A stretch of DNA of 52,330 bases from an uncultured Granulosicoccaceae bacterium. GTDB taxonomy: Bacteria > Pseudomonadota > Gammaproteobacteria > Granulosicoccales > Granulosicoccaceae. This document shows, piece after piece, positions 3,113 to 12,517 of this stretch. How positions within the stretch are numbered: position 1 is the first letter of the stretch; each line of letters starts with the position of its first letter. The notes below the pieces were generated by a model. The model made no database searches, was not told the DNA's origin, and was given only the letters and a program-made list of their open reading frames with translations. A program made the translations under genes and the position numbers. The stretch covers positions 1 to 52,330 of the forward strand of contig CALLLY010000306.1 of the NCBI GenBank assembly GCA_938008205.1. Reading direction: 5' to 3'.

Positions 3113-5029
3113 ATGGTCTACCTCATTACCCAGTTGCTGTTGTTACTCGCGATAGCTTCACTTCTCAGTGCAGCGATCGGCTGGTTGTGTCGGCGTTTTT
3201 TTACCGAACAAGCTCATCAAAACGAGCTCGACGATCACAAGCGTGCTAATCGCCGGTATCTCAACGAACTGGACGACTTGCGGCGCGAACTGACTGATCG
3301 CAATACACAGGTTGCCGGTTTGAATTCAAAGCTTCACTACAACAACGAAGCGATTCAAAGGGCAGAGCAGGAACGCGAGAATCTGCTGCAGGACATTGAT
3401 GATTTACGTGCGCTGGAAAACCAGCTGCGAGCGGTGGAAGATGATCGCGCCGACATAGATCACCAGTTGGCGGCAACATCAGCCGAGCTGGACCGGGCTC
3501 GTCAGGCACACGCCGACAATATTGCCGATCTGCAAAATGCTATCGCCGAGAAGGAGCAAAACCTGCTCAATGCCGAACAGGCCAATCGGGAGCTCGACAG
3601 GCAACTGGGCATAAATGCGGGTAATGCCGATCAGAAGGAACAACAGCTCAATGCTGCTCTCGCCGCAGCCTCCGATAAAGAAAAACAGCTTCGCGAAGCG
3701 CAAAACGCTAATAAGCAAAAAGATCAGCTGCTGAATAGCGCCAATGCTGCACAAGCAGAGAAAGAAAACCAGCTCAGAGAAGCCGCTGTAAGAGCTGCCG
3801 AAAGCGAAGAAAAACTGCGTGCTGCCGAGCGTGTTAACGCTAACCTTGAAGACATTATCAAAAGTCTGAATAACGACATCAAGGCAAAAACGGCAGAGCG
3901 GGAAAATGCTGCTCAACAACATGCAGCACTAAGTGCAGAGCTTGCTAAACTACAACAAAAACTGGCACAAACAGAGCAAACCGACAACGCTCGAATTGCT
4001 GAACTTGAGAATGCTCTGCGCGGAAAGACCGATCACCTGGCCAGCGCCAGACAGAGTATCGCGGCTGGTGAAGAAAAGCTTAACGCACTGAATGATCAGC
4101 TCGCAGATCGTTCGCAGCAACGAGATAAACTCGAACGCCTGGCCGAAGACCAGCAAAAAGAAATACAGGCACTGCAACGCGACATCAATAAGGCGCAGCA
4201 GGAAACTGCCGATTCAAAGATCGCTGCACAAGAGTCGGTTGCGGGCTTACAAAACGAACTCGACAAGCAGAAAGCCGTTACCGAAAACCATCGTGGTGAG
4301 GCTGCCAATCTATCTCGCGAAAAAGGAGACCTGAAGCGTGAAATCGATGGATTGAAAGCCGAATTAAAAGACACCAGAAACGCTGGCGAAGCCAAAATGG
4401 CAAACGTTGCTGAACAACTCAAGCATCAGCAACAAGCGACTACCAGCTCGCAGTCCGCGGCGGCAGCACTTGAAAAGCAACTGGCTGAATTAAAAAACCA
4501 AAGTGCCAGAGACAAAGATGCAGCAGACAAGCAAATGAGTGCGCTGCGTCAGAGTGAAAGAGAAGCAACTCAGCTTGCCGGCCAGGTCGATAACGCTAAA
4601 GACCGGATTGCAGAGCTTGAATCACAAATCGCTAACGGACGCTCTGGAGCAACTGCACAGGAAAAGGAACTTAAAGACAAACTCAGTCAGCAGGCCAACG
4701 CGCTTAATGCCAAAGACACTGAACTGCGGGCGGCAATTTCTCGTTCCATGGAACTGGAAGACTCTGTAGCAGCATTTCGGTCCAATGAGGCAGAGCTCAA
4801 AGCCCTCATTGAGCAACTGAAAGCGCAACTGGCAGAAGAACGCAAACTGGCAGGGTTTAACCTTTTGTCGCGCATCAAAGAACTTGAGGCTATGCTCGAC
4901 GCAGAACGTCGCAAGGCTGATGAGATGCAATCAACCTCTGACATTGGCAAAGTAAAGTGGACCGCCAAGTCTACCGTACACAGCAGAGCTGCTAATTCTT
5001 CGAGCGTCTATCGCAAGAAGACGGGATAA
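3113..5029 (+). CDS. Membrane-anchored long coiled-coil protein (function unknown)
   Basis: 638 aa with a single N-terminal TM (VYLITQLLLLLAIASLLSAAIGWLCRRFF). About 600 aa of Q/E/A/K/L-rich heptad-like sequence follows, with internal repeats (EKEQNLLNAEQANREL, QKEQQLNAAL, DKEKQLREAQ, EKENQLREAA). A GGAG lies 8 nt before the ATG, 24 nt after the OmpA stop. Confidence 0.7.
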   Translation: MVYLITQLLLLLAIASLLSAAIGWLCRRFFTEQAHQNELDDHKRANRRYLNELDDLRRELTDRNTQVAGLNSKLHYNNEAIQRAEQERENLLQDIDDLRALENQLRAVEDDRADIDHQLAATSAELDRARQAHADNIADLQNAIAEKEQNLLNAEQANRELDRQLGINAGNADQKEQQLNAALAAASDKEKQLREAQNANKQKDQLLNSANAAQAEKENQLREAAVRAAESEEKLRAAERVNANLEDIIKSLNNDIKAKTAERENAAQQHAALSAELAKLQQKLAQTEQTDNARIAELENALRGKTDHLASARQSIAAGEEKLNALNDQLADRSQQRDKLERLAEDQQKEIQALQRDINKAQQETADSKIAAQESVAGLQNELDKQKAVTENHRGEAANLSREKGDLKREIDGLKAELKDTRNAGEAKMANVAEQLKHQQQATTSSQSAAAALEKQLAELKNQSARDKDAADKQMSALRQSEREATQLAGQVDNAKDRIAELESQIANGRSGATAQEKELKDKLSQQANALNAKDTELRAAISRSMELEDSVAAFRSNEAELKALIEQLKAQLAEERKLAGFNLLSRIKELEAMLDAERRKADEMQSTSDIGKVKWTAKSTVHSRAANSSSVYRKKTG

Positions 5030-5112
5030 CACCGCCGCCTGAGAGGCTTGGCTCTAATTGAGCTGATGTCCGTGGTGCATCCGCTGCATCCGTACAGGTG
5101 ATACATAGTTGG

Positions 5113-5144
5113 ATAAAACGCCGCTGTTAAGCGGCGTTTTTTTA
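5113..5144. terminator. Bidirectional rho-independent terminator
   Basis: AACGCCGCT (5117-5125) / loop GTTA / AGCGGCGTT (5130-5138), flanked by an A-run upstream and a T-run downstream. It sits between convergent genes ending at 5029 and 5146. Confidence 0.75.
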
Positions 5145-5145
5145 T

Positions 5146-5502
5146 TTACTTGATTTTTCTCAACGCACGATGAAGTTGCTCTGCGCCCGCTACCATCTGC
5201 TGTTTTCCCCGATCGCTGTAATTGCCCGCAGGCACCGGCGCCAGCTGCCAGGTCTTCCATTCTTCTTGTTTGTCATCAGTGCAGGACGGTTCTTCGTCGG
5301 TACTGACTGAAATGGCCTTTTGCATTTTCCTGTACTGATCAACGTTAGTCAGTTGCTTGTGTTTTAACCGCTCCAGGAAGGTGTTGTTCACAATGTATCC
5401 CTTGTATTGAGTGCAGGCAGATTGTAAGCGATTGGCCATAATCGCATATTGATTCATTGCAAACAGCCCGACGCCATTTACGCCGAATGTGCAACACACC
5501 AC
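5146..5502 (-). CDS. Hypothetical protein
   Basis: 118-aa ORF ending right at the terminator, with no motif I recognise. The more likely start is the ATG at complement 5457 (MNQYAIMANRL...). Confidence 0.4.
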   Translation of the reverse strand: MVCCTFGVNGVGLFAMNQYAIMANRLQSACTQYKGYIVNNTFLERLKHKQLTNVDQYRKMQKAISVSTDEEPSCTDDKQEEWKTWQLAPVPAGNYSDRGKQQMVAGAEQLHRALRKIK

Positions 5503-5634
5503 ATTTCGACTGATAATTGTGAACCTGGTTGCAACAGCGATTGATTTACCCGGTTCGATGTGCCAACACAGTCAAGACAAAAACTGATTTAAATAAGTAA
5601 CCTGTCGCGCTCGACTCGTTCAGTGGTTCAGCGC

Positions 5635-6249
5635 ATGAAATACGCAACATTTCTGGCAGCAGGCTTTGCAGCCGTATTCCACCTTAATGCAGATGCAGCG
5701 CCCGGGGAGTGCGAACAGTTACCGCCACTACGCGACAGTGGGCACTATTTTGATCACAATGATATTCAGCCCATGCAGGCGCAGAACATTATCAAAATCG
5801 AGCGCTTTGCCAAAGCGCTGGAAGGCCGATGGCGTGGTACCGGAACTATTATCGATTGTGTTGAAAGAGAGCGGCAGGCAGTCAAAAACCATAGAGAGTT
5901 CGATTTTATCGGAGAGACAATCGAATTTAACAACGGTGCACTTGAGCTCAAACGCGAACAAACCATTATTGATTTGAAAACCGTGCAGCTGGAAAAAATA
6001 CCACTTACCCCTGCAATTTACGACAACCCCGAATTACAGCGCTGGCATACGCTGGAGTTTGAAAATGACTCCACAATGATCTACTCGCAAAAGTATCGTC
6101 GCGCTACCGCCTACGGACTCAATCAGTTTGTGCACGAGATTAAAAAAGTGACACTTAAAGATGGCGTACTACAAATAGACCAGAAGAAATTCATCAACGG
6201 GGCTTTTGCATACCAGTCGGGTACAACACTGACACGCTTGCCGGGTTAG
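5635..6249 (+). CDS. Hypothetical secreted protein
   Basis: ORF 5623..6249. The internal ATG at 5635 gives MKYATFLAAGFAAVFHLNADA, a plausible Sec signal peptide. No recognised family. Confidence 0.55.
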   Translation: MKYATFLAAGFAAVFHLNADAAPGECEQLPPLRDSGHYFDHNDIQPMQAQNIIKIERFAKALEGRWRGTGTIIDCVERERQAVKNHREFDFIGETIEFNNGALELKREQTIIDLKTVQLEKIPLTPAIYDNPELQRWHTLEFENDSTMIYSQKYRRATAYGLNQFVHEIKKVTLKDGVLQIDQKKFINGAFAYQSGTTLTRLPG

Positions 6250-7417: not shown

Positions 7418-8080
7418 GTGCCTGAATTAACAGATTTGTTAAAGGAAGTGCCGACGTTTTCCGAGCTCGACGCGGACGCACTCGAGTCACTGGCCGGCAA
7501 ATCACGTCGCCATACCTTCAAAAAAAATACTGTGATAATGCCTGAAGGCGAACCGGGTGAGTGTCTCTACATTATCGAATCCGGCAGCGTAAAGGTGTTC
7601 GTAGGCGATGAAGACGGACGGGAGCTGGTTCTGTATCAGGAGGGTCCAGGCACCTGCATCGGTGACATTTCACTTCTGGACGACGCCCCTCGCTCCGCTT
7701 CTGTGATCACCCTTGAGAAAACAGTCGCCTGGTCATTATCGAAGCAGGATTTTCTTGCCTGCATCGAACAGAACCCGCAGATGTCCCTGAAAATTATCCG
7801 AACATTGACCCGCCGTCTAAGAGATGCCACCGGCGGTATTCGCAGCCTGGCGCTGGATAACGTCTACCGCCGACTTGCAGACAAATTGATTGAACTGGCC
7901 GTTGAAGAAGAAGGCGAACTGGCTCTCGAGAAACGCTATTCGCAACAGGACCTGGGCAACATGATTGGCGCTTCCAGAGAAATGGTCGGCAAGGTGATAT
8001 CAGAACTCGTCAATGGCGAATACATTGAAATGCGGGATAAAAGAATTCATATCCTGAAAAATCTGCCACGCAATTGGTAA
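7418..8080 (+). CDS. Crp/Fnr-family transcriptional regulator (cNMP-binding domain + C-terminal HTH)
   Basis: cNMP-binding beta-roll (GEPGECLYIIESGSVKVFVGDEDGRELVLYQEGPGTCIGDISLLDDAPRSASV). C-terminal HTH (SQQDLGNMIGASREMVGKVISEL). AGGAG lies 8 nt upstream of the GTG start. Confidence 0.85.
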   Translation: MPELTDLLKEVPTFSELDADALESLAGKSRRHTFKKNTVIMPEGEPGECLYIIESGSVKVFVGDEDGRELVLYQEGPGTCIGDISLLDDAPRSASVITLEKTVAWSLSKQDFLACIEQNPQMSLKIIRTLTRRLRDATGGIRSLALDNVYRRLADKLIELAVEEEGELALEKRYSQQDLGNMIGASREMVGKVISELVNGEYIEMRDKRIHILKNLPRNW

Positions 8081-8093
8081 TCCCCAAAGCGAA

Positions 8094-9197
8094 GTGAACA
8101 ACGCAACAACACCTTCATCCTTTGATGACATATTTCTCAATGACATTCCACTGATCGATGTTAGAGCGCCTTGCGAATTTCAACGAGGCGCTTTTCCAAC
8201 CTCGGTTAACTTACCTATTTTAAACGACAAAGAGCGACAGCTGGTTGGTACCTGTTATAAACAGAAAGGACCACAGAGCGCAGAAGAACTCGGGCACGCC
8301 CTACTAGCCGGTGAGAAACGTCAGGCTCGAATTGCCAGTTGGGGTGAGTTTGCAAAACAAAATCCACAAGCCTATCTCTACTGCTTCAGAGGCGGAAAAC
8401 GCTCGAACATCACGCAACAGTGGCTGCACGAACACGAGATCAGCCTGCCATTAGTTGAAGGCGGCTACAAAGCCTTGCGAAACCACCTGATTGAGATACT
8501 GGAAAATTACTCACGCTCATTACCGCTAATTTTGCTTAGCGGTAAAACCGGAAGCGGAAAAACATTATTACTGCCACACTTGCCGCACCATATAGATCTA
8601 GAAAAGCTGGCCAACCACCGTGGCTCAAGTTTCGGTGCGGTGCTGACTCCTCAACCCACCAATATCAATTTCGAAAATGGCCTGGCAATAGACATGCTAA
8701 AAGTTGCCCAACGCAATCCACAAAGGGTATTCATTGAAGACGAAGGCACTTTAATTGGGCGCATCTCGGTACCGGAGCCGCTGAGAAACCAGATGTTAAA
8801 GCTTCCCGCCGTTTTGCTCACGGCAAACATTCAAAAACGAGTCGAGGTATCTGAAAAGGATTACATTAGCGACTTACTGAGAGCTTATCGAACCACACAT
8901 GGAATAGATATCGGCTTACAGCGTTTTATAGAGCACCACAAAACAGCTCTGCTAAAAATAAAAAAGCGATTTGGATCTGACAACAGTAATCGTAGCCTGA
9001 AAATGTTTGATGCTGGTGTCAAACACTTAATACAGAGCAACGATACCTCAGGTTTTCACCCTTACATCGAACACTTGCTAACGCAATACTATGATCCAAT
9101 GTACGAGTATCAGTTTAAAAGTAAAAATCGAACGGTAGTTTTTTCCGGTAACGCTGATGAAGTACTACAATGGTGTAAAGAATATTGTCCAGACTAG
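8094..9197 (+). CDS. mnmH: tRNA 2-selenouridine synthase
   Basis: Collinear with E. coli YbbB/SelU as I recall it. Rhodanese part (IDVRAPCEFQRGAFPTSVNLP, YCFRGGKRSN, PLVEGGYKALR), P-loop (LSGKTGSGKT), ANHRGSSFG and C-terminal YYDPMYEYQ. Confidence 0.85.
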   Translation: MNNATTPSSFDDIFLNDIPLIDVRAPCEFQRGAFPTSVNLPILNDKERQLVGTCYKQKGPQSAEELGHALLAGEKRQARIASWGEFAKQNPQAYLYCFRGGKRSNITQQWLHEHEISLPLVEGGYKALRNHLIEILENYSRSLPLILLSGKTGSGKTLLLPHLPHHIDLEKLANHRGSSFGAVLTPQPTNINFENGLAIDMLKVAQRNPQRVFIEDEGTLIGRISVPEPLRNQMLKLPAVLLTANIQKRVEVSEKDYISDLLRAYRTTHGIDIGLQRFIEHHKTALLKIKKRFGSDNSNRSLKMFDAGVKHLIQSNDTSGFHPYIEHLLTQYYDPMYEYQFKSKNRTVVFSGNADEVLQWCKEYCPD

Positions 9198-9464
9198 CTG
9201 ACACTCGAACCTCTGATTCTTGCTGTTGATACAGTATTCTTCTGAAAAACTGAATTTCCTTGACTAGCTTCAATCAGGTAGCAATCAGCTACCTGATGGG
9301 CTGCGCCATGACTTCATCGACACATTATTCGTAGCGAATACACGCTATTGCCGCGATAGCTAAAGCTTGCCTATATTTTTTGGCAGGATATCGAAACCAG
9401 CTTTGTTAATCGTTCATGAACTCAAGGCCACCCTCAGCACATTTCACAAAACAGGAAATCAGTC

Positions 9465-9665
9465 ATGAAAACATCAAACATCACCACCGGTGCAGCCAAC
9501 CAATCACCCGCAATAAAGGCACACGTGAAAGCACAGTCTTCTAAAACAACCACCGGTGCTGCAAATCAGCCACCTTCAGTGCAGCAGCATATCAAAAAAT
9601 CAAACACCACAACCGGTGCAGCTAACCAGTCACCAAGTGTTAAAAAACATCTGCAGCAAAGCTAA
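9465..9665 (+). CDS. 66-aa basic micro-protein with three TTGAANQ(S/P)P-x4-H repeats (candidate precursor peptide)
   Basis: AGGAA lies 7 nt upstream of the ATG. Three repeats: ITTGAANQSPAIKAHVK / TTTGAANQPPSVQQHIK / TTTGAANQSPSVKKHLQ. The core TTGAANQ is encoded acc acc ggt gca gcc aac caa / acc acc ggt gct gca aat cag / aca acc ggt gca gct aac cag, differing only at synonymous third positions. This argues for selection on the peptide. Confidence 0.6.
   Translation: MKTSNITTGAANQSPAIKAHVKAQSSKTTTGAANQPPSVQQHIKKSNTTTGAANQSPSVKKHLQQS
9483..9656 (+). repeat. Three tandem peptide-level repeats (22- and 20-codon period) inside the micro-protein gene
   Basis: The core motif starts at residues 7, 29 and 49. 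See the codon comparison in the CDS entry. Confidence 0.8.
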
Positions 9666-9695
9666 CCAAACCTTTCAAGAAAAGAGAAACCGAGT

Positions 9696-10526
9696 ATGGG
9701 CGTAATTCAGGAAGAATACGAGTTAAGCGCTGCTATGGATCCAGCGGTACACCAGCCGCTGATTAGTTTCTATACAGTCTACCCGAACTCAGTACCTCCT
9801 ATGGCTGCCGATCGATCAGCGCTCGGCAGCATTCCCTCTCAGGCATACCAATACTGCGAAGCCGTAACTACCGCATCGGCCTTTGGCTGGTACGCGTTTC
9901 CAGCCTCATCATTCACACTAAGCTTTGACGGCGTAGATGTATACCTGCTTGAGGATCAACAAAAAAGAAAATTCTCTGCCCTACAACTTGACGGGATGGA
10001 TGAGTGGTGGAATGCACATTGTCCGGAACATCTTAAAGACATGGCACCTCCGTTTATCACTAACCTGGGTATCCCCGGTTATGTGCAGGTATGGTCGGGC
10101 TTGTTAATAGAGACCCGCAGGAACTGGAGCACACTTATCAGGCCCATTGCCAACACTCCAATGAGTAATCAGTATTTTTGTTTTGAAGGAATTGTTGAAA
10201 CCGACTCCTATTCCCCTGCACCCTTGTTTGTTAATCTTAAACTGCAGGTTACCGATACACCGATAGAATTCTCACATCTGGAACCACTTTTTCAGGTACA
10301 GCCGATTCATCGAAGCTGCTACAGTAAAAAAAGCCTTAACGACTTTGTTAGCACCAGAATTTCAAGTAAAGAATATATGACCGACTCTCATTGGCAGCGC
10401 TATGCGAATACAGTCCGACATATCGACCCACGTCAGGATGATCATAAAACCGGGCAATATGCCATCGACACTCGAAAACGCGGCAAAAGAAGCAATGATA
10501 ACAAGCAGGGCTGCCCTTACTTGTAG
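9696..10526 (+). CDS. Uncharacterised 276-aa protein, partner of the repeat micro-protein
   Basis: Starts 30 nt after the micro-protein stop on the same strand. No signal peptide or TM. The motif YQYCEAVTTASAFGWYAFPASSFTLSFDG reminds me of a DUF-type (possibly DUF6065 / cupin-like) family, but I cannot verify that. Basic C-terminal tail (RKRGKRSNDNKQG). Confidence 0.7.
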   Translation: MGVIQEEYELSAAMDPAVHQPLISFYTVYPNSVPPMAADRSALGSIPSQAYQYCEAVTTASAFGWYAFPASSFTLSFDGVDVYLLEDQQKRKFSALQLDGMDEWWNAHCPEHLKDMAPPFITNLGIPGYVQVWSGLLIETRRNWSTLIRPIANTPMSNQYFCFEGIVETDSYSPAPLFVNLKLQVTDTPIEFSHLEPLFQVQPIHRSCYSKKSLNDFVSTRISSKEYMTDSHWQRYANTVRHIDPRQDDHKTGQYAIDTRKRGKRSNDNKQGCPYL

Positions 10527-12193
10527 GGCACACCTGCACGCTCGAGCCTGTCGGCGATTTGTCTGCCGGTTCGATAAGCGGCATTGGGTGAGTGAGAAAG
10601 ATAACTGCTGGTGGTAAACAGAGGATCAGTTTTCATGAGATGCTGTACACTTTTCTGAGCCTGCTCAGTCTTTCCCAGGTCCATCTGTATCGCAACCAGT
10701 GTGCGCAAATTTGACGTATGTTGTGGATTGATTTCGAAAGCTTTATCGGCATGTAGCTCGGCGTTTTCGTAATCATCAATCGAGTAATAGGCTGCCGCAG
10801 CGCAGGTATGAAACATGTTTAATTGCGGATCGAAGGGGGACAAGCTCAGTGCTTTGTTCGCACACTTAATCGCCTCATAGCCCTGCCCTTTGTAAGACAA
10901 CACTGCCGCCTTATAGGCGTATGTCAGTGGTTCGTTGGGGTTGTATTTTTCCGCACGGTTATAAATATCCAGACCTTTTTCAGGGTTCCGATTAAGCTGT
11001 GTTTCAACCAGACCACTCACTGTCAGCGCCAGTGAGTTTCGAGGATCCGCCTGCAGTGCCTGATCGAGATAACGCTGTGCGACCGCTTTCTTTTCCTCGA
11101 CGCCGTTGTTCCACCCACCCTTACGATGCAGCTGCAAAATATACCAGTGGGCGAGCTGTGCATTAACAGTGGTATGTGAAGGATGCGAAAGCAATATTTG
11201 TTTTAACGCAGTTTTCGCACTGTTAAAGCCGGAGTCATATTCACTGTGCATGTTATAGATGCCGGCAACCAGCTTGGTATGCATGTTTAATGAATCAAGT
11301 GGTTCTATTTGAGCGCGTTTGACTTCCTGCGAAATAATTGATTCGCCGGTTCGATAAATTAGTTCATCTGTGAGATCGTCCTGCTCCTGGACCAGCACGT
11401 CGACAACACAGGATAATTCATCCGCCCAGATCACCTCGGAGCTCACACAATCTGCCAACTCGACCATCAGCCTGAGCTTACCGTTGCGACAAAGGTAGCT
11501 GCCCGACATGACATAATCGGTGCCCAGCAGATCTGCAATCTCTTTCAAACTGCAGTTGGCGTTTCGCAGCTGACTGGTACTAAGCCGCGAGATTACATTG
11601 AAGTGCGGAGATCGCGATAGGCCGGTTACCACACTGTTGGCGAGCACTTCCCCGATTACCGCCTCTTCGTCATCGCTCGCTCCATGATACTTAAACGGGA
11701 TGATCGCAATGGTCGGACTGGATTCGTCGGTTGCGCGTATCGGCCAGAGTCGCACACCAATACCGCTGGACTGATTAGCCGCGCTGTAACGAGTGATGTC
11801 AGACGCCTGTCCAGGAGGTCGGGAACACTGTGGCTCCTGCACCTGAAAGTTCGCAGGGCTGAGCGTTTGAAACGTGGCAATGTAGTTGCCGGCCGGTACA
11901 TCAATGCGGATCTGATCGCTTTTACCTGTACCGAGATAATATTTATCGAGCGCCCGGCGGGCATGCCTGGCGATATTGCGAACGTACGGATCACCCGGGT
12001 CAAAGCCGGCACCTTTACCAAACACTTCTACAGCAATGTTGTAAGAGCGAATTGTGTCCTGGCCGGACAATGTTTTAGACACCACATAGGTGAGGAATTT
12101 CTGCAGTCGCCTGGACTTATTAAACTCTGCGGAGGCGAGTAGTCGCTCAAGCTGTGAGTTGACCCTTTCACTCCACGTGATTGTTTCTGACAA
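10517..12193 (-). CDS. Winged-helix + TPR-repeat regulatory protein
   Basis: The N-terminal segment (LLASAEFNKSRRLQKFLTYVVSKTLSG..IRSYNIAVEVFGKGAGFDPGDPYVRNIARHARRALDKYY) is typical of DNA-binding-like N-domains fused to TPR modules. The middle has a TolB-N-like segment (IAIIPFKYHGASDDEEAVIGEVLANSVVTGLSRSPHFNVISR). The C-terminal half holds TPR-like repeats (YNRAEKYNPNEPLTYAYKAAVLSYKGQGYEAIKCANKALSLSP...). TTG start. Confidence 0.7.
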   Translation of the reverse strand: MSETITWSERVNSQLERLLASAEFNKSRRLQKFLTYVVSKTLSGQDTIRSYNIAVEVFGKGAGFDPGDPYVRNIARHARRALDKYYLGTGKSDQIRIDVPAGNYIATFQTLSPANFQVQEPQCSRPPGQASDITRYSAANQSSGIGVRLWPIRATDESSPTIAIIPFKYHGASDDEEAVIGEVLANSVVTGLSRSPHFNVISRLSTSQLRNANCSLKEIADLLGTDYVMSGSYLCRNGKLRLMVELADCVSSEVIWADELSCVVDVLVQEQDDLTDELIYRTGESIISQEVKRAQIEPLDSLNMHTKLVAGIYNMHSEYDSGFNSAKTALKQILLSHPSHTTVNAQLAHWYILQLHRKGGWNNGVEEKKAVAQRYLDQALQADPRNSLALTVSGLVETQLNRNPEKGLDIYNRAEKYNPNEPLTYAYKAAVLSYKGQGYEAIKCANKALSLSPFDPQLNMFHTCAAAAYYSIDDYENAELHADKAFEINPQHTSNLRTLVAIQMDLGKTEQAQKSVQHLMKTDPLFTTSSYLSHSPNAAYRTGRQIADRLERAGVPYK

Positions 12194-12440: not shown

Positions 12441-12517
12441 TGGCACGCCCGGAAGGATTCGAACCTCCGACCACCTGGTTCGAAGCCAGGTACTCTATCC
12501 AGCTGAGCTACGGGCGC
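12441..12517 (-). tRNA. tRNA-Arg (anticodon UCG)
   Basis: The reverse complement is GCGCCCGTAGCTCAGCTGGATAGAGTACCTGGCTTCGAACCAGGTGGTCGGAGGTTCGAATCCTTCCGGGCGTGCCA. It folds as a cloverleaf with anticodon stem CCTGG/CCAGG, loop CTTCGAA, a T-arm GGTTCGAATCC and an encoded CCA. It closely resembles E. coli tRNA-Arg. Confidence 0.9.

Follow-up and report, generated by a model that had tools for sequence, protein, structure and literature searches.

A small open reading frame (ORF) for a repeat mini-protein and, directly behind it, the gene of a DUF6065-family protein lie in a 52,330-nucleotide stretch of DNA from an uncultured Granulosicoccaceae bacterium (contig CALLLY010000306.1; the whole stretch is called the window here), and related loci with the same pair are distributed over the Alpha-, Beta- and Gammaproteobacteria. 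The pair is read, with about an even chance of being right, as a cassette akin to those of peptides made by the ribosome and modified after translation (RiPPs), in which a multi-unit ribosomal peptide is accompanied by a dedicated protein that acts on its units. The basis of this reading is the pairing itself, selection on the coding sequence, the fold of the partner, a set of recurrent neighbouring genes and one natural fusion, from which we infer physical interaction, catalysis, export and regulation within the cassette.

The small ORF of the window begins with ATG, and its 66-amino-acid (aa) translation, MKTSNITTGAANQSPAIKAHVKAQSSKTTTGAANQPPSVQQHIKKSNTTTGAANQSPSVKKHLQQS, holds the motif TTGAANQ[S/P]P-x4-H three times. 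The peptide is free of D, E, C, F, W and Y, and inspection by eye, made without a predictor, revealed no hydrophobic signal-like stretch. When the nine-codon TTGAANQ[S/P]P cores are compared pairwise, four to five codon differences are synonymous and none or one is non-synonymous; a comparison with the orthologue in L004, the closest locus (nucleotide identity 68%), gives 16 unchanged codons, 29 with a synonymous difference and 21 with a non-synonymous one. Because of this synonymous excess, both against L004 and between the cores, the ORF is regarded as coding rather than as a product of chance, and it is in all likelihood a genuine coding sequence, selected at the level of the peptide rather than of the DNA repeat. 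In the aligned loci L004-L006, AGGAG or AGGAA is kept at the position of the ribosome-binding site. The synonymous excess, this site and the presence of such an ORF in nearly all related loci are the grounds on which a translated precursor, as a RiPP would have, is presumed. Eight diverse examples of the repeat peptides gave only sub-threshold, composition-driven matches in NCBIfam and Pfam, and the PHROG matches of the window peptide are at chance level (expectation value (E) 0.3-0.8).

The pairing was followed through a census of one genome per species, covering about 186,000 species-level genomes, at least 454 of which encode a DUF6065 relative; 80 loci of the 454 were retrieved. The closest relatives of the DUF6065 gene (50-74% identity) come from metagenome-assembled genomes of Granulosicoccaceae, and the other hosts include Polaromonas, Hydrogenophaga, Variovorax, Rhodoferax, Ramlibacter, Casimicrobiaceae, Sulfurifustis, Bradyrhizobium, Bosea, Roseomonas and Nisaea, among others. 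Of the 75 non-redundant related loci whose upstream DNA extends for 300 nt or more, 74 carry a tandem-repeat ORF directly upstream of the DUF6065 gene on the same strand, all but L036; three loci that apparently had none proved to have the ORF cut by the end of the contig. Since a crude 4-mer repeat score has a high background in the GC-rich related loci (28%), upstream repeats were assessed with a motif model for which ten units served as seeds. Two or more units were found by this model in 34 of the 75 upstream windows and in one of 774 control windows taken from these loci, and that lone match may be the second cassette of L022. The loci that the model missed have more divergent repeat types, recognizable by eye.

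Iteration of the model to a profile of 286 units gave the consensus K-V-x-h-G-x-G-x-I-S-P-x-V-K-x-H-L, and the unit shared across the family can be written h-[K/R]-h-G-x-G-x(2-3)-P-x-h-K-x-H. In the profile practically all aligned units have the first Gly, and about 80% have the Pro; of the units long enough to include the His position, about 90% have His there. The position following G-x-G is hypervariable. The number of copies lies between 1 and about 15, and the ORF reaches up to 270 aa. Close relatives of the window have three copies of TGAANQSPxVKKH; other types among the related loci are two copies of AMGFANQPTAVKKHIQK, four of TAMGAIHKPAALKKHLL, 10-13 of VQMGxGxISPxVKAHLxKK in Polaromonas, 7-11 of KVRLGGMAPSLKPA in alphaproteobacteria and two of VRYGSGNAPRVVR. 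Selection on the peptide is seen in L019 as well, where nine units share one peptide sequence and each has a DNA sequence of its own; summed over the unit pairs, the codon differences come to 199 synonymous and 0 non-synonymous ones. A preliminary description of this DNA had set out the 66-aa ORF with its AGGAA site and three units, its lack of Asp/Glu, Cys, aromatic residues and a signal peptide, selection on the peptide rather than the DNA repeat, and a 276-aa ORF 30 nt downstream on the same strand, and all of these are borne out, the selection by both the L004 comparison and the core codons. Its expectation that homologues of the 276-aa gene would be accompanied by short repeat ORFs of variable copy number is likewise upheld by the 74 loci. 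The residues that it singled out for modification (Asn, Gln, His, Lys and Thr) are not conserved family-wide; of the unit, only the first Gly and, to a lesser degree, the Pro are conserved.

The pair holds together at considerable sequence distance. On the Rhizobium sp. WSM4643 plasmid NZ_CP104041.1 (L084, 6691-8861), where DUF6065 identity has fallen to 33%, an 83-aa protein annotated as hypothetical (WP_170279615.1), with three acidic units D-x-G-x-VHIANKSPAFD, precedes a 'DUF6065 family protein'. DUF6065 relatives are also encoded by 14 putative viral contigs from IMG/VR (L086-L099), of which L093, L094 and L098 are among those with upstream repeat ORFs; in one IMG/VR contig the units are just 11 aa long. 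The chromosome of Polaromonas aquatica 36b22 (NZ_CP192467.1; L022, 1024-4753) carries two adjoining cassettes, the first composed of a four-unit peptide, DUF6065 and a transporter of the MFS type with gaps of 3-4 nt, and the second of a ten-unit peptide and DUF6065, without an MFS gene of its own. Moreover, a natural fusion occurs in a Logan contig (SRR29176001; L085, 136-1077; protein P0148), in which one unit, ..VGRIRFGAAAAKPP.., is joined in frame to DUF6065 by a linker of about 35 aa; AT-rich, promoter-like DNA lies upstream and a convergent gene for a BTAD-type regulator downstream. The fusion provides Rosetta-stone evidence that unit and DUF6065 work together. It also counts against the notion, in our view very improbable, that the small ORF serves as a leader peptide or upstream ORF whose translation regulates the expression of DUF6065 and is not a substrate. 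Such a role would suit an ORF that sits immediately upstream and is short in the window, and repeated Gly/Pro motifs might slow ribosomes; however, leader peptides would hardly reach 270 aa with about 15 units under strict amino-acid selection on every unit, and no terminator, attenuator structure or Rfam element was found between the small ORF and the DUF6065 gene.

The partner gene begins 30 nt past the stop codon of the small ORF, in the same frame, and its product contains YCEAVTTASAFGWYAFP. Residues 132-212 match Pfam DUF6065 (PF19541) with 29.2 bits, above the gathering score of 26.6 (E 8e-7), which places the protein in the family; for most homologues PF19541 is the precomputed assignment, and some bear the title 'DUF6065 family protein'. 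A set of 5.8 billion proteins yielded 274 homologues, and an exhaustive search 814 clusters at 50% identity. The protein has no match in NCBIfam or PADLOC and none among the PHROGs at E <= 1. A 452-aa protein met in the search of representatives, P0240, has an HD-like DUF6817 domain N-terminal to a divergent DUF6065 domain; this single fusion gives a weak hint of nucleotide- or phosphohydrolase-related chemistry.

An AlphaFold2 model of the 276-aa protein, built on 42 homologues, is rich in beta strands and has a predicted local distance difference test (pLDDT) score of 90.3 and a predicted template modelling (TM) score of 0.83. Foldseek returned only trimeric dUTPases as the top 50 matches in the PDB (best E 2e-5; TM score 0.7-0.79, dUTPase-normalized), dUTPase-Stl complexes among them, and in BFVD the best matches are uncharacterized phage proteins of 200-290 aa, with dUTPases next. 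Three of these phage proteins, the uncharacterized Caudovirales proteins A0A6J5MPI8, A0A6J7WVY4 and A0A6J5NHY4, fit the model better than any dUTPase does. The predicted fold of DUF6065 is thus dUTPase-like and not that of a cupin, so that of the earlier label 'DUF6065/cupin-like' the first half stands and the second falls. A cupin or 2-oxoglutarate-type oxygenase hydroxylating Asn, Gln, His, Pro or Lys of the repeats is accordingly the least credible of the alternatives and largely refuted by the fold: the suggested cupin-like motif and the wealth of beta strands had spoken for it, but no cupin appears in the top 50 Foldseek matches of either PDB or BFVD, the 42 family members examined share no invariant His and no H-x-D/E...H triad, and the Asn, Gln, Lys and His of the window units are not conserved family-wide. 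The double-stranded beta-helix with a metal triad that had been envisaged was looked for in the model and by Foldseek, which found only dUTPases and uncharacterized phage proteins, and hydroxylase-type chemistry is left without a basis because DUF6065 has no invariant His.

Across the same 42 members, D39, C54, W65, N153, E168, D170, N180, R260 and R262 are invariant. A manual mapping by the order of secondary structure would equate R149-P with dUTPase motif II, G165-I-V-E-T-D170 with motif III (GxIDxDY) and E196...Q200 with motif IV; of the five dUTPase motifs, the Gly-rich motif V has no counterpart segment in the DUF6065 protein.

The genes around DUF6065 were counted among ORFs within 5 kb in 81 loci, after clustering, Pfam and NCBIfam scans and domain-wise BLAST, and the conserved neighbours in the other loci are confined to regulators and MFS/EamA transporters. 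In 33 loci the DUF6065 gene is followed by a transporter gene on its own strand, of the MFS type in 16 and of the EamA/DMT type in 17. At the Rhizobium plasmid locus the downstream MFS frame is broken by stop codons; strain SRDI969 has an annotated MFS transporter beside its match. Downstream transporters and the peptide-enzyme fusion are together consistent with a precursor and a dedicated processing protein.

The second recurrent partner is a regulator with a C-terminal module of a weakly TolB_N-like region and tetratricopeptide repeats (TPR), found near DUF6065 in 43 of the 81 loci, to which six BTAD-type loci are added by their N-terminus (about 49). Its N-terminus is swapped between lineages: it is an unassigned domain, like a winged helix-turn-helix (wHTH) by eye, in nine Granulosicoccaceae loci, including the window, a class III adenylate/guanylate cyclase in 28 and of the BTAD/SARP type in six. 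The window version overlaps the 3' end of the DUF6065 ORF by 10 nt and has Pfam TPR matches, a weak TolB_N match (residues 153-252) and a C-terminal region like that of HilA/EilA. It had been described beforehand as a convergent wHTH-TPR regulator next to a tRNA-Arg gene; the orientation, the TPR and the tRNA are right, while the wHTH label is not confirmed by Pfam, which gives no match for the N-terminus, and goes back to a resemblance by eye to OmpR/ToxR-type winged helices. Crp/Fnr-type regulators, which bind cyclic nucleotides, occur within 5 kb of DUF6065 in 17 of the 81 loci, and in five they are fused to the cyclase-TPR protein. PADLOC has no match for the regulator, nor for the DUF6065 protein or the 66-aa peptide.

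These partners invite a special case of the cassette reading, a signalling loop of the RRNPP kind, in which units matured by DUF6065 and exported would be sensed by the neighbouring TPR regulator, with output either by a direct transcription switch (wHTH or BTAD) or through cAMP or cGMP and a Crp-type factor. TPR receptors in the Rap, NprR and PlcR systems bind short peptides, and a loop of this kind would account for a TPR module that stays constant while the output domain is exchanged (wHTH-like, cyclase and BTAD), for Crp-type proteins adjacent or fused in 17 loci and for the adjacent transporters. The peptide, however, has no signal sequence, no peptide importer is seen nearby, and about 40% of the loci have no regulator within 5 kb; to our knowledge, RRNPP systems are not known in Proteobacteria. 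The loop is therefore considered unlikely.

Returning to the cassette reading at large, the proposed mechanism is that DUF6065 would recognize each unit of about 11-20 aa by its core, h-[K/R]-h-G-x-G-x2-3-P, probably bound in extended-strand form with a Gly/Pro turn after it, and would then modify or cleave it. In most lineages the product would be exported by the MFS/EamA transporter encoded directly downstream, a gene absent from the window. Expression would be controlled by the TPR sensor-regulator, possibly through a DNA-binding N-terminus in the window version, and in other lineages this regulator may make cAMP or cGMP for a Crp-type factor. As to the chemistry, our guess is either a step that depends on a nucleotide (transfer of a nucleotidyl group, or processing driven by NTP) or a Cys54-dependent cleavage at the invariant Gly. 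The former is favoured by the dUTPase-like fold, the invariant acidic strand G-I-V-E-T-D and the Arg-rich C-terminal tail. The idea of cleavage or cyclization arises from the invariant Cys54 and the invariant Gly, whose h-[K/R]-h-G-G surroundings superficially resemble LxGG or double-glycine sites. The most far-reaching version, in which DUF6065 would be the founding enzyme of a new proteobacterial class of ribosomal peptide products or signals and the first dUTPase-fold peptide modifier or processor, with units possibly nucleotidylated, or cleaved or cyclized at the Gly, exported by MFS/EamA proteins and autoinduced through TPR-cyclic nucleotide and Crp circuits, is conceivable and distinctly doubtful.

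Several observations weigh against the cassette reading. One locus, L036 (Hydrogenophaga sp. 5NK40-0174, 3219-5879), has Crp, DUF6065 and MFS genes and no repeat ORF within 4 kb; its peptide gene may be located elsewhere or have been lost. The Rhizobium plasmid repeat lacks the Gly at the usual position. In the window there is no cassette transporter, MFS/EamA homologues being absent by tblastn at E <= 1, and family scans of its neighbouring genes revealed no known RiPP enzyme class, RiPP recognition element (RRE) domain or peptidase. No sequence-level link connects DUF6065 with dUTPases: there is no Pfam dUTPase match, the family profile finds none among the PDB sequences at E <= 10, and hhalign of DUF6065 against Escherichia coli Dut gives a probability of 0.3%. 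Nucleotide binding by DUF6065 is therefore suggested by the fold only. The lack of an invariant His tells against a classical Cys-His protease, and hence weakens the idea of cleavage or cyclization. Finally, the AlphaFold2 model of the L085 fusion leaves the unit disordered (pLDDT below 50) and predicts no docking.

An undefined docking and the missing dUTPase match at the sequence level would both suit a protein that does not catalyse at all, with the repeat protein as its multivalent ligand, scaffold or inhibitor, and with transporter and regulator as unrelated neighbours or as proteins acting on a small molecule that DUF6065 handles. Non-catalytic protein binders with the dUTPase fold exist, some of them signalling modules, as the herpesviral dUTPase-related proteins and the dUTPase-Stl complexes illustrate, and the latter figure among the Foldseek matches. 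Nevertheless, the many invariant polar residues (D39, C54, N153, E168, D170, N180, R260 and R262) are typical of an active site, the variable copy number and the hypervariable unit position look more like those of a substrate than of a fixed partner, and the operon is tightly coupled to exporters, so that a mere binder is improbable.

The features of the window that bear on the cassette are listed in the table.

Table. Positions of the peptide-DUF6065 pair and adjoining features in the window.
Feature	Position	Strand	Description
Crp/Fnr-family transcription factor	7418-8080	+	cNMP_binding and HTH_Crp_2 domains; possible second regulator of the cassette
SelU-type tRNA 2-selenouridine synthase	8094-9197	+	Rhodanese and P-loop; AAA_SelU in the L001 orthologue
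Upstream conserved block	9226-9297	+	Contains TTGATACAGTATTCTTCTGAAAA; from alignment with L004, L005 and L006; candidate promoter/operator of the peptide-DUF6065 unit
Shine-Dalgarno-like AGGAA	9453-9457	+	7 nt before the ATG of the small ORF
Small repeat ORF	9465-9665	+	66 aa, ATG start, three tandem 17-aa units; candidate multi-unit precursor or substrate
Repeat unit 1	9480-9530	+	ITTGAANQSPAIKAHVK
Repeat unit 2	9546-9596	+	TTTGAANQPPSVQQHIK
Repeat unit 3	9606-9656	+	TTTGAANQSPSVKKHLQ
DUF6065-family protein	9696-10526	+	276 aa, dUTPase-like beta fold (predicted); candidate peptide-processing or -binding partner
Convergent TPR regulator	10517-12193	-	558 aa; unassigned N-terminus of about 115 aa (wHTH-like by eye), weak TolB_N-like middle, C-terminal TPR
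tRNA-Arg(TCG)	12441-12517	-	tRNA gene

Upstream of the small ORF, the conserved block is confined to close relatives. It includes a conserved TTGACT (9260-9265) and a perfect 10-bp inverted repeat with a 5-nt spacer (9273-9282, ATCAGGTAGC; 9288-9297, GCTACCTGAT), which is partially conserved in the relatives and could be either an operator or the terminator stem of selU. A segment of about 160 nt (window ~9293-9452) has no counterpart in the intergenic regions of L004-L006, and the lone sigma-70-like match of the promoter scan (9348-9377) falls inside it. No structured RNA or riboswitch was found in the 5' region of the small ORF. The arrangement of Crp, selU and cassette is syntenic in Granulosicoccaceae loci only, and the link of the window Crp gene to the cassette is tentative because selU sits between them. 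Other neighbours in the window encode MarR, OmpA/BON, SH3, FAA hydrolase, SDR and GMC oxidoreductase proteins. Elsewhere, a biopterin-dependent aromatic amino-acid hydroxylase resembling Phe-4-hydroxylase is encoded downstream on the opposite strand in six Burkholderiales loci, mostly Polaromonas (L020, L022, L023, L027, L028 and L033; in L022 at 5011-5925 (-)), and a GGYS-repeat protein lies near the cassette in seven Comamonadaceae loci, upstream of it in six.

No paper was found on DUF6065/PF19541, on the repeat peptide or its pairing, or on a dUTPase-like protein in a peptide pathway, and no curated family covers the peptide type or the pairing, both of which are thus undescribed as far as these searches reach. 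If the pairing serves peptide maturation, it would represent a new RiPP-like family, with a precursor type not described before (Gly/Pro-turn units in tandem, numbering from 1 to about 15) and a maturase fold that is not known from peptide chemistry. The family is widespread, being present in at least 454 genomes, in environmental metagenomes and on some putative viral contigs; were the reading true, Pfam DUF6065 with its roughly 800 clusters at 50% identity would gain a function, and the dUTPase fold would be credited with a wider range of catalysis or of ligands. The ties to TPR-cyclase and Crp proteins could, in addition, reveal peptide-linked cyclic-nucleotide signalling in Gram-negative bacteria. 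Complete cassettes are carried by cultured hosts, namely Polaromonas aquatica 36b22, Hydrogenophaga intermedia S1, Variovorax paradoxus ISL-3, Bradyrhizobium jicamae and Rhizobium sp. WSM4643.

Among known systems, one was considered as an equivalent and rejected. The cyaD1-clr-smc02178/smc02177 module of Sinorhizobium meliloti does not correspond to the cassette, since SMc02178 carries a signal peptide and resides in the periplasm, and a FecR domain is present in SMc02177 (PMC5498481). An origin in anti-phage defence or phage protein families was dismissed as well, DUF6065 having neither a PADLOC nor a PHROG match.

The RRNPP systems (Rap-Phr, PlcR-PapR and NprR-NprX) resemble the cassette in that a small peptide gene stands beside a TPR regulator with a DNA-binding or signalling output. 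They differ from it in that the cassette peptide has no signal peptide, that DUF6065 is an extra component, that the hosts are proteobacterial with no Opp-type importer nearby, and that the TPR protein has another architecture, in which a wHTH-like, cyclase or BTAD region is followed by a TolB_N-like region and then by TPR. A further likeness is offered by NCBIfam TIGR04510, 'putative peptide modification system cyclase' (814 aa), which by its name is a large cyclase tied to a peptide-modification cassette. The window regulator matches this model only faintly (14 bits against a cut-off of 400 bits; residues 217-287, in or near the TolB_N-like region), and the cyclase-type neighbours in L020 and L049 have no TIGR04510 match at E <= 0.001. 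The window regulator and the cassette cyclases are therefore a family distinct from TIGR04510, and the likeness is architectural only.

Microcin C and pantocin A (mccABC and paaPABC) are like the cassette in that a small peptide of ribosomal origin goes with few tailoring genes and with an MFS exporter (MccC and PaaC). As a conjugate of peptide and nucleotide, microcin C would go well with a fold that binds nucleotides; nucleotide use by DUF6065 is suggested by its fold only. MccB and PaaA, in contrast, are ThiF/E1-like adenylating enzymes that work with single-copy precursors, whereas the cassette has a dUTPase-fold partner, repeats and no recognizable immunity gene.

In the dUTPase/dCTP deaminase superfamily (PF00692, PF22769), the beta core superposes on the DUF6065 model (TM score 0.7-0.79), and the order of motifs II, III and IV may be echoed, by manual mapping, in an Arg-Pro loop, the acidic G-I-V-E-T-D strand and a Gln-containing strand. 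Compared with dUTPases, DUF6065 is about twice as long, carries an N-terminal extension with the invariant D39, C54 and W65, and has an Arg/Lys-rich helix in place of motif V.

We know of no RiPP pathway with DUF6065 or a dUTPase-like partner. Multi-core RiPPs (the cyanobactin PatE, multi-core graspetides, fungal dikaritins such as UstA, and borosins) differ from the cassette in their enzymes, as no ATP-grasp, YcaO, radical-SAM, LanM, subtilisin-like protease, methyltransferase, DUF3328 or RRE protein lies near it. Likewise, what defines graspetides and cyanobactins, an ATP-grasp ligase with Asp/Glu acceptors, PatA/PatG-type proteases or a heterocyclase, was not found among the window neighbours. 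Known cross-linking RiPPs need Cys or Asp/Glu; the cassette peptide has no Cys, and that of the window no Asp/Glu either. The cassette thus belongs to none of the named classes tested, yet it resembles a multi-core RiPP cluster: the two have in common tandem near-identical units in variable copies with a hypervariable position, a dedicated adjoining gene in the operon, and an exporter and a regulator nearby, and the fusion of core and enzyme in borosins is matched here by the occasional fusion of precursor and DUF6065.

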